Part shown: positions 1 through 1,180 of the stretch, in pieces | Layout: each line of letters starts with the position of its first letter | How positions within the stretch are numbered: position 1 is the first letter of the stretch | Source: Escherichia coli | GTDB taxonomy: Bacteria; Pseudomonadota; Gammaproteobacteria; Enterobacterales; Enterobacteriaceae | Direction: 5' to 3' (one strand) | Assembly (NCBI RefSeq): GCF_003334385.1 | Contig: NZ_QOWN01000121.1 | Length of the DNA: 1,207 nt | Position numbers and translations under genes: made by a program | Notes under the pieces: model-generated | What the model saw: the letters and a program-made list of their open reading frames with translations, nothing else | The model's database searches: none | Told to the model about the DNA's origin: nothing

Positions 1-313
1 CGCTCAAGCAACAGCGCATTCTGGCGCATGATCCGGTAAACACGTTTGGCATTGATCGCAGGCATACCATCAAGTTCTGCCTGTCTGCGAAGCAGCGCCC
101 ATACCCGACGATAACCATACGTGGGCAGCTCTCCGATAACATGGTGTATACGGAGAAGCACATCCGTATCATCAGTGTGACGACTGCGGCGGCCATCCAT
201 CCAGTCATCGGTTCGTCTGAGAATGACGTGCAACTGCGCACGCGACACCCGGAGACAACGGCTGACTAAGCTTACTCCCCATCCCCGGGCAATAAGGGCG
301 CGTGCGCTATCCA
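1..313 (-). CDS. insD: IS2 OrfB (InsD), DDE transposase catalytic part, N-terminal ~104 codons only; 3' end truncated by the window edge
   Basis: Manual translation of the reverse complement of 1-313 from the GTG at 313-311 gives (V/M)[103 protein letters not shown], recognised as the InsD N-terminus. It is in the -1 frame relative to orfA and overlaps its 3' end. It is absent from the ORF track because it has no ATG and no stop inside the window. Confidence 0.85.
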
Positions 314-637
314 CTTTTTTGCCCGTCCATATTCAACGGCTTCTTTGAGGAGTTCATTTTCCATCGTTTTCTTGCCGAGCAGGCGCTGGAGTTCTTTAAT
401 CTGCTTCATGGCGGCAGCAAGTTCAGAGGCAGGAACAACCTGTTCTCCGGCGGCGACAGCAGTAAGACTTCCTTCCTGGTATTGCTTACACCAGAGAAAT
501 AACTGGCTGGCTGCTACACCATGTTGCCGGGCAACGAGGGAGACCGTCATCCCCGGTTCAAAGCTCTGCTGAACAATTGCGATCTTTTCCTGTGTGGTAC
601 GCCGTCTGCGTTTCTCCGGCCCTAAGACATCAATCAT
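272..637 (-). CDS. insC: IS2 OrfA (InsC), the small helix-turn-helix DNA-binding / regulatory transposase subunit, 121 aa
   Basis: The supplied ORF 272..682(-) contains [49 protein letters not shown]...[15 protein letters not shown], recognised as IS2 InsC. I place the start at the ATG at 637-635 (residue 16 of the track ORF), which has the GGAG ribosome-binding site upstream. The track's longer N-terminus begins at a GTG inside the IRL and is unlikely to be real. Stop is TAA at 274-272. Confidence 0.9.
314..320 (-). other. Programmed -1 ribosomal frameshift slippery heptamer A AAA AAG, joining orfA to orfB to make the OrfAB transposase
   Basis: The minus strand reads GGGCAAAAAAGTGGATAGCGCAC. 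In the orfA frame this is GCA AAA AAG TGG. After a -1 slip the reading continues AAA AAA GTG GAT AGC..., giving [15 protein letters not shown]..., which matches the InsD N-terminus. A6G frameshift sites are the established mechanism in IS3-family elements. Confidence 0.7.
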
Positions 638-642
638 CTGTT

Positions 643-646
643 CTCC
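643..646 (-). promoter_or_regulatory. Shine-Dalgarno (GGAG) for IS2 orfA
   Basis: The minus strand reads CATTGGAGAACAGATG: GGAG followed by a 5-nt spacer and the orfA ATG at 637-635. Confidence 0.5.
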
Positions 647-676
647 AATGACTAGTCTAAAAACTAGTATTAAGAC

Positions 677-696
677 TATCACTTATTTAAGTGATA
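677..696. repeat. 9-2-9 palindrome TATCACTTA-tt-TAAGTGATA straddling the inner edge of the IS2 IRL
   Basis: Seen directly: 677-685 TATCACTTA, 686-687 TT, 688-696 TAAGTGATA, a perfect reverse complement. It lies between the terminus and the orfA start, where the IS2 promoter/operator is reported. Its function is inferred, not shown. Confidence 0.6.
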
Positions 697-728
697 CTGG
701 TTGTCTGGAGATTCAGGGGGCCAGTCTA
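688..728 (-). repeat. IS2 left terminal inverted repeat (IRL, ~41 bp); element terminus at position 728
   Basis: The minus-strand sequence starting at 728 is TAGACTGGCCCCCTGAATCTCCAGACAACCA..., the characteristic IS2 terminus. The exact inner boundary is taken from the published ~41-bp IRL length, not measured here because the right end is absent. Confidence 0.75.
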
Positions 729-913
729 GTCAGTGATCTACAGCCTGTTGAATAAAACCCCGGATGCTTCCCCCGATTCTGCAAGTAATACTTCGGTTAT
801 TTGCACTATTTTATCCCTGTTGAATTTGGTTAAGCCGGTGCAGACGCGCCGGGAAACGCACACCTGAACCGGCACAATAAAATACAATACAACCCCCTGT
901 TACTGGAGAAATG

Positions 914-945
914 TAAGCGTCAACGGAGCACCGTATTGACGCTTA
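914..945. repeat. Perfect palindrome / hairpin (10-bp arms TAAGCGTCAA / TTGACGCTTA, 12-nt loop) at the IS66-like terminus, overlapping the transposase stop codon
   Basis: Seen directly: 914-923 TAAGCGTCAA and 936-945 TTGACGCTTA are exact reverse complements. The loop CGGAGCACCGTA can form an extra 3-bp stem (CGG/CCG). On the plus strand it is followed by TTTATT (946-951), so it resembles an intrinsic terminator in that orientation. Confidence 0.6.
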
Positions 946-1128
946 TTTATTGGTGAGTACTACGTTCCATGGCAGGAGTTCGTCAACTCGGTTGGAAGGC
1001 CATTCCGGCAGTACGCTCAGGATATGGCGCAGATACGCTTCCGGATCGATACCGTTCAGACGGCAGGTGCCGATCAGCCCGTACAACAGTGCTCCACGCT
1101 CGCCGCCGTGATCGCTGCCAAAGAACAT
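943..1128 (-). pseudogene. IS66-family transposase (TnpC-like), C-terminal 61-codon fragment
   Basis: ORF 943..1128(-) translates to MFFGSDHGGERGALLYGLIGTCRLNGIDPEAYLRHILSVLPEWPSNRVDELLPWNVVLTNK. This matches the conserved IS66 transposase C-terminus pattern (WLFAGSD.GGERAA..YSLIGTCKLNG.DPEAYL...ELLPWN). Full-length proteins are ~500 aa, so about 90% is missing. The frame immediately upstream is closed by stop codons. Confidence 0.6.
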
Positions 1129-1180
1129 AAAGATGGTATGACCTTTATATACTCACTATAGCATTGGTGGGATATTCCAG

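Follow-up and report, generated by a model that had tools for sequence, protein, structure and literature searches.

A perfect palindrome in the orfA leader of the insertion sequence IS2, with 9-bp arms and a 2-bp spacer (window 677-696, IS2 nt 33-52), is very probably the operator for OrfA (InsA), the repressor that the element itself encodes. The window is the whole stretch of DNA analysed, 1,207 nucleotides in length, and the part considered here is the regulatory leader of IS2. The finding describes the PIRL/OrfA autoregulatory region of this element, which is already known biology, and the additions made here are modest: the whole dyad, and not only its A/T-rich centre, is conserved with compensatory changes in related elements, and the copy of IS2 in the window has an R50C substitution in OrfA. 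Two smaller ACTAGT-type palindromes in the same leader are most likely not protein operators but belong to the 5′-UTR and the initial transcribed region.

Identity of the element and organization of its left end

Window 1-728, read on the minus strand, is the left part of IS2; 725 of its 728 nt match a canonical IS2 copy (L001), its reverse complement opens with TAGACTGGCCCCCTGAATCTCCAGACAACCAGTATCACTTAA/TAGACTGGCCCCCTGAATCTCCAGAC, and the E. coli RefSeq annotation of the element is IS3-like element IS2 family transposase. The assignment to IS2 made in the original prediction is therefore borne out by both sequence identity and annotation. Coordinates are converted as IS2 nt n = window 729-n, and the resulting numbering agrees base for base with the published IS2 bases. 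The element is abundant: of 5,426 complete E. coli genomes, 4,829 contain the 94-nt leader, which has 23,189 occurrences in all. The features discussed below are as follows; the length of the IRL and the Pribnow box of Pjunc are taken from PMC3299598 and PMC3219604.

Window 723-728 (IS2 nt 1-6): TAGACT, the outer 6 bp of IRL and the -10 element of the minicircle-junction promoter Pjunc
Window 687-728 (IS2 nt 1-42), minus strand: IRL, 42 bp, beginning 5′-TAGACTGG and ending ...TATCACTTAA
Window 706-711 (IS2 nt 18-23), minus strand: TCTCCA within IRL, a possible anti-Shine-Dalgarno (anti-SD) sequence complementary to UGGAGA
Window 677-696 (IS2 nt 33-52), no strand: dyad A, the perfect 9-2-9 palindrome, TATCACTTA-TT-TAAGTGATA in direct reading
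Window 681-690 (IS2 nt 39-48), minus strand: residues protected by protein, TTAAATAAGT, containing TAAATAA (PMC3299598)
Window 673-681 (IS2 nt 48-56), minus strand: PIRL, weak extended -10 promoter, TGATAGTCT (PMC3299598 and sequence)
Window 653-678 (IS2 nt 51-76), no strand: dyad B, imperfect, TAGTCT-N14-AGACTA, centred on the first ACTAGT
Window 663-668 (IS2 nt 61-66), no strand: ACTAGT, 5-10 nt downstream of the -10 hexamer
Window 650-657 (IS2 nt 72-79), no strand: GACTAGTC palindrome in the 5′-UTR, 3 nt upstream of the Shine-Dalgarno (SD) sequence GGAG
Window 643-646 (IS2 nt 83-86), minus strand: SD sequence GGAG, 5 nt upstream of the orfA ATG
Window 272-637, minus strand: orfA, 121 codons plus stop, ATG at 637-635 (IS2 nt 92-94), encoding the helix-turn-helix repressor OrfA/InsA
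Window 314-320 (IS2 nt 409-415), minus strand: A6G (AAAAAAG), the programmed -1 frameshift window (sequence; PMC3219604, PMC3299598)

The three palindromes of the original prediction all fall in the interval from the IS2 terminus (window 728) to the orfA ATG (637-635). The IRL at window 728-687 matches the 42-bp IRL of IS2 apart from one substitution, A32G. This change (A>G at window 697) is one base outside the 9-2-9 palindrome, in the protein-binding domain of IRL, and is also present in one other locus (L054). The outermost hexamer of IRL, TAGACT, recurs as a direct repeat at window 654-659 (IS2 nt 70-75; TAGACTAG compared with TAGACTGG); as this repeat is present only in the IS2 clade, it is probably coincidental.

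The orfA gene encodes a 121-residue helix-turn-helix protein with a coiled-coil dimerisation region, residues 8-87 of which match HTH_Tnp_1 (E = 6e-18). A -1 frameshift at A6G yields the OrfAB transposase (PMC3219604, PMC3299598), and a programmed frameshift is annotated in an identical locus. The start of orfA is placed at nt 92 because the SD sequence and ATG are at window 646-635 and all relatives have the start at this position. An ORF of 136 codons that opens with a GTG at window 682 is the mechanical longest ORF, and its GTG was rejected as the start of the gene, given the SD sequence and ATG at 646-635.

A palindrome that contains the published OrfA site

The 9-2-9 palindrome predicted at window 677-696 is present exactly as described, with perfect 9-bp arms that end at this length because the flanking bases (676 and 697) are both C. 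Its axis falls between IS2 nt 42 and 43, precisely where the 42-bp IRL ends on its inner side, so its left arm is the innermost element of IRL, TATCACTTA, and its right arm is an inverted copy of that element just inside IRL. The TATCACTTA element is also present at the right end of IS2, where transposase binds, but IRR ends ...TATCACTTAA followed by CCCATT, without a mirrored arm. The inverted copy is thus confined to the left end, which argues for a role as promoter-operator rather than in end recognition.

The 9-2-9 palindrome is beyond chance. In dinucleotide-preserving shuffles, arms of at least 9 bp with a spacer of 6 bp or less occurred in 2.8% of shuffles of the whole 1,207-bp window and in 0.34% of shuffles of the 91-nt leader, and a 30-nt piece around the palindrome, folded as single-stranded DNA, has a z-score of -3.75, with none of 200 shuffles folding as well.

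OrfA has been reported to bind immediately upstream of PIRL, a weak extended -10 promoter situated just inside IRL (PMC3299598, citing Hu et al. 1994). The docking site of the repressor is 5′-TAAATAA-3′, at IS2 nt 40-46 (window 683-689; PMC3299598, Lewis et al. 2012), with strong protection of residues 39-42 (TTAA) and 43-48 (ATAAGT) (PMC3299598), and the first bases of PIRL, TGAT, are nt 48-51 (window 678-681; PMC3299598). PIRL has a TG at nt 48-49 and the hexamer TAGTCT at nt 51-56 but no -35 element, and TGATAGTCT is the sole match to TGNTANNNT in the IS2 part of the window. A scan of the window for sigma-70 -35/-10 promoters gave no match, as expected for an extended -10 promoter. Consistent with this position of PIRL, an oligonucleotide from which IRL was deleted, while the E-10 promoter was conserved, starts at ATAAGTGATAGTCT (PMC3219604, Lewis et al. 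2011).

The docking site, the protected residues nt 39-48 and the TGAT of PIRL are all inside the 9-2-9 palindrome, its centre being the published repressor site and its inner arm containing the promoter TG and the -10 hexamer's first two bases. Taken together, these positions identify the palindrome as operator and promoter together. What would be seen in a dyad operator is found here, namely inverted half-sites beyond chance expectation that overlap core promoter elements. The original prediction had placed the orfA promoter and the OrfA/InsA binding site in this stretch, which agrees with the coordinates in PMC3299598, and had proposed its palindromes as the operator and promoter elements. 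This stands for the 9-2-9 palindrome, as the published site is inside it and not elsewhere, but not for GACTAGTC and the second ACTAGT. As published, the docking site is the A/T-rich centre TAAATAA and not the arms (PMC3299598). The footprint of Lewis et al. (2012) was obtained with an OrfAB-GFP preparation that also contained OrfA and on a substrate that ended at nt 50 (PMC3299598), so that the inner arm was only partly assayed.

Conservation of the dyad in IS2-like elements

When one genome per species was scanned, relatives of OrfA, 63-99% identical, were found to be encoded at 80 loci, from Enterobacterales, Aeromonas and Burkholderiales. The comparison covered 59 distinct leaders of IS2-like elements and an alignment of 48 leaders, and in nearly all of the relatives the distance from the IS terminus to the start codon is ~91 nt. 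A dyad at the inner edge of IRL takes the following forms.

IS2: TATCACTTA-AA-TAAGTGATA
Close enterobacterial relatives: TATCACT-N6-AGTGATA
Rahnella (L017): TCACTTA-A-TAAGTGA
Aeromonas: CCTCTTAA-C-TTAAGAGG
L031 and L036: TCTCTTAA-C-TTAAGAGA
L032: TATCTT-N7-AAGATA
Burkholderiales: CCCAC...GCGGG, degenerate

Perfect arms of at least 7 bp are present at the inner edge of IRL in 20 of the 59 distinct leaders, as compared with 1.2% of 2,320 equal-sized control windows taken from the bodies of the same elements. In the Burkholderiales the dyad is weak; its perfect arms reach 3-4 bp, which does not exceed background. Across the 48 aligned leaders, the nine pairs of dyad A are complementary in 74.5% of cells, versus 39-54% when the partner is slid, and none of 500 shuffles matched the observed pairing or covariation score, statistics that overstate independence as the covariation consists of a few clade-level events; shuffles can be surpassed by related sequences even when nothing constrains these. 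The compensatory changes include a double change at nt 35/50, from T-A to C-G, with a standard pair in 47 of the 48 rows (44 Watson-Crick and 3 U-G), and one at nt 37/48, from A-T to T-A.

The arms also track the DNA-binding domain. Each arm type is accompanied by its own sequence at the start of the recognition helix, VAASQLFLW with TATCAC, VNANQLFKW with CCTCT, IQPSLLFKW with TCTCT and VNPNQLFHW with CCCAC. Such a correspondence fits co-evolution of protein and DNA, although it is confounded by phylogeny and so is not independent evidence. That a dyad is kept while its arms differ, in step with the recognition helix, suggests that the entire palindrome serves as the operator, and not the A/T-rich centre alone.

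The alignment also revealed potential alternative translation starts. In the elements from Aeromonas (L019-L024, L028) and Burkholderiales (L033-L079), an ATG or GTG lies in frame 27 nt upstream of the start codon of the alignment; its position corresponds to IS2 nt 64-66 and so to the predicted transcription start. These upstream codons give similar nine-codon extensions (MFSTSHNEK and VFLTNTRQE), and many of the Burkholderiales elements have (A/T)TG ACT AAC at nt 70-78. In IS2 itself, the leader is 1 nt longer and the frame of the upstream start has a stop codon. In Aeromonas and Burkholderiales elements, the upstream ATG or GTG could be an alternative or leaderless start, or provide an N-terminal extension.

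The small palindromes of the leader

The GACTAGTC palindrome predicted at window 650-657 is present in direct reading. The second ACTAGT is also present but at 663-668, one base away from the predicted 664-669, which reads CTAGTA. The latter copy (nt 61-66) covers the predicted transcription start, 6-8 nt after nt 56. A leader with two copies of ACTAGT is unusual, as the same hexamer occurred twice within the 91 nt in only 0.32% of leader shuffles, in what is a post-hoc test, and the tetramer CTAG, present at 652, 664 and 726 (3 observed versus a Markov expectation of 0.8), occurs nowhere else in the window.

Nevertheless, there is about an even chance that the ACTAGT-type palindromes have no function as palindromes and are lineage-specific sequence of an A/T-rich leader in which the 9-2-9 palindrome alone is functional. 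Palindromes of 6 bp are expected often and self-complementary hexamers arise easily in such a leader. Their symmetry is lost in relatives that look intact, being of normal length and having both inverted repeats (L013, L015, L017 and all of the Burkholderiales elements). In place of GACTAGTC there is AAACTGGTC in L013, GACTGGTT in L015 and L017 and GACTAACA in Burkholderiales, and in place of ACTAGT there is ACTATG in Aeromonas and ACTGTG in Burkholderiales. Among the relatives, there is no compensatory change in either ACTAGT (56% paired) or GACTAGTC (61.5% paired), and with symmetry lost in this way the two were rejected as conserved palindromes.

Set against the absence of any function is the conservation of the two ACT cores (nt 61-63 and 73-75), which are among the most conserved positions of the leader. 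C62 and C74 are invariant, A61, T63, A73 and T75 are each at least 90% conserved, and conservation this strong indicates that the region is under some constraint. In the alignment, conservation extends to two ACT triplets at a distance of 12 bp and not to the symmetry. Inspection of nt 33-80 by eye for Fis and IHF consensus sequences gave only poor matches.

A larger dyad over the -10 hexamer and predicted start site

The -10 hexamer TAGTCT is followed, 14 bp downstream, by an inverted copy, AGACTA, so that a larger imperfect dyad, dyad B, that was absent from the original prediction spans IS2 nt 51-76. It is conceivable, but rather improbable, that dyad B is a second operator over the -10 hexamer and start site, for OrfA, OrfAB or a host protein, or that it consists of paired -10-like hexamers for divergent transcription; the GACTAGTC palindrome would then be a by-product of the inverted copy AGACTA. 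In the 48 relatives, 77.6% of the cells of dyad B are paired, versus 25-57% with the partner slid, and none of 500 shuffles matched the observed pairing or covariation. T51, A52 and G53 and also A73, C74 and T75 are invariant or nearly so, the pair at nt 56/71 changes from T-A in the IS2 clade to A-T in the Burkholderiales, and that at nt 58/69 changes from A-T to G-C in Aeromonas.

Most of this signal, however, comes from pairs that never vary (TAG/ACT), and the two halves could each be conserved separately, one as the -10 hexamer and the other as the possible alternative start-codon region, (A/T)TG ACT AAC, of the distant clades. Compensation amounts in effect to a single event, between two large clades, and in the Aeromonas, Cedecea, Paludibacterium and Martelella elements only 3-4 of the 6 arm positions are complementary. 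The published footprint substrate, which stops at nt 50 (PMC3299598), falls short of nt 51-80. As a pattern in aligned leaders, dyad B is thus a weak lead and not a finding. The same region has a conserved direct repeat, ACT-N9-ACT, at nt 61-63 and 73-75.

Potential structures in the leader RNA

The two copies of ACTAGT are mutually complementary and form a 7-bp inverted repeat (IS2 nt 61-67/72-78). The palindromes might act as RNA structure. Transcripts that read through from outside, or that originate from Pjunc, would fold such that hairpins at nt 33-52 and nt 61-78 bring UCUCCA (nt 18-23) onto the SD sequence UGGAGA (nt 82-87), blocking it and turning translation off, while transcripts from PIRL, which start at about nt 62-64 and so do not have the upstream strands, would stay translatable. 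Protection of this kind from outside activation is described for IS10 and IS50.

We regard regulation in this manner as unlikely for IS2. For nt 13-109 and nt 1-109, both the minimum free energy fold and the centroid fold do have a three-way structure in which the SD sequence is paired (-22.2 and -25.4 kcal/mol), an RNA of PIRL length does not form this structure, and at some positions of dyad A there is a G-U pair instead of a mismatch (nt 39/46, U-G in 14 sequences). But the fold energies have a z-score of only -1.4, with 13-18 of 200 shuffles folding equally well, RNAalifold gave no consensus pair for the 48 relatives, and a search of Rfam at E <= 1 gave no match. The hairpin formed by the two copies of ACTAGT shows no covariation, being 66% paired with shuffles equal or better. 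The anti-SD pairing (nt 18-24/81-87) holds in only 51% of cells and does not extend beyond the IS2 clade; it was rejected, as within that clade both partners are conserved for other reasons. Occlusion of the SD sequence also fits badly with the efficient translation that Pjunc transcripts need for step II of transposition.

The copy of IS2 in the window

Within orfA there is a C>T change at window 490 (IS2 nt 239) that results in R50C in the helix-turn-helix recognition helix of both OrfA and OrfAB. An arginine at this residue is conserved across all 16 aligned relatives, with lysine in two. With R50H, transposition was abolished and DNA binding was weaker, and R50 has been proposed to contact DNA (Lewis et al. 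2011, PMC3219604). With R50C this copy of IS2 is probably immobile and dependent on OrfA supplied in trans, and the OrfA that it encodes may be a defective repressor. Among 5,426 E. coli genomes, 383 have the R50C allele, at 439 places in all, of which 366 are on plasmids; the median is one place per genome, and this distribution fits a copy that does not proliferate.

IS2 adjoins the right end of an IS66-like element, ISEc23, at window 729-1132. Homology to an intact ISEc23 locus ends at ~1132, the C-terminus of the ISEc23 transposase is encoded by an ORF at window 943-1128 on the minus strand, and just past its stop codon there is a 10-bp inverted repeat at window 914-945 (TAAGCGTCAA/TTGACGCTTA). 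In other genomes, an IS110-like ISEc45 is annotated beside ISEc23, consistent with a nest of insertion sequences. The last 75 bases of the window, which are unassigned, contain a good extended -10-like motif, TGCTATAGT, at window 1155-1163 on the minus strand.

Proposed mechanism of autoregulation

With the palindrome at nt 33-52 as the operator of OrfA, one half-site would be the inner end of the left terminal repeat and the other would be the extra inverted copy just inside the repeat. As the TG of PIRL and the first two bases of its -10 hexamer are in the inner arm, a bound dimer of OrfA, or bound OrfAB, would exclude RNA polymerase from PIRL and so keep orfA-orfAB transcription low. OrfA that acts in this way on its own promoter would constitute negative autoregulation. 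The literature shows that OrfA acts as a repressor, that it has a binding site at TAAATAA, nt 39-48, and that the promoter is of the extended -10 type (PMC3299598). We infer that both arms are contacted by an OrfA dimer; OrfA is reported to dimerise through residues 58-105 (Lei & Hu 1997, via PMC3219604).

A more extended proposal, which we put forward only tentatively and consider doubtful, is that the IS2-group leader contains other sites besides the A/T-rich docking site. OrfA may read the arms as a dimer, in which case arms and recognition helix would have co-evolved across Enterobacterales, Aeromonas and Burkholderiales, and there may be a second conserved element over the -10 hexamer and start site. 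Such an element, for which TAGTCT-N14-AGACTA and the ACT-N9-ACT repeat at nt 61-75 are the candidates, may be a further operator, a host-factor site or a means of RNA-level control specific to Pjunc transcripts.

Under the preferred reading, the region would be an autoregulatory switch that keeps IS2, among the most abundant insertion sequences of E. coli, near-silent until formation of the minicircle junction creates a strong promoter. The result is of little importance beyond correct annotation, but the arm variants of the relatives are ready-made natural variants with which specificity could be tested.

Comparison with known systems

The IS2 system in the window has the same TAAATAA, protected nt 39-48, TGATAGTCT coordinates, orfA and A6G as published IS2, and nt 33-91 are identical. 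This copy differs from published IS2 by A32G, outside the palindrome, and by R50C in the OrfA/OrfAB recognition helix. The reports on IS2 in PMC3299598 and PMC3219604 make no mention of the 9-2-9 dyad or of its conservation in relatives.

InsA of IS1 resembles OrfA in being a small N-terminal product that shares the DNA-binding domain of the transposase, binds at the promoter at the left end and represses both transcription and transposition (Machida & Machida 1989; Zerbib et al. 1990, as cited). It belongs, however, to an unrelated family, with a zinc finger/helix-turn-helix, and its sites are within both inverted repeats, whereas the IS2 dyad is made of an inverted repeat element plus an extra inverted copy. 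IS911 and IS30 are other circle-forming elements. IS911 has the same IS3-type organization as IS2, with orfA, a -1 frameshift and orfAB, and likewise has a weak promoter at IRL and a strong junction promoter. In IS30, an N-terminal fragment similarly overlaps its own promoter (PMC3299598). Unlike OrfA of IS2, OrfA of IS911 does not repress the promoter but modulates complexes formed by OrfAB (PMC3299598).
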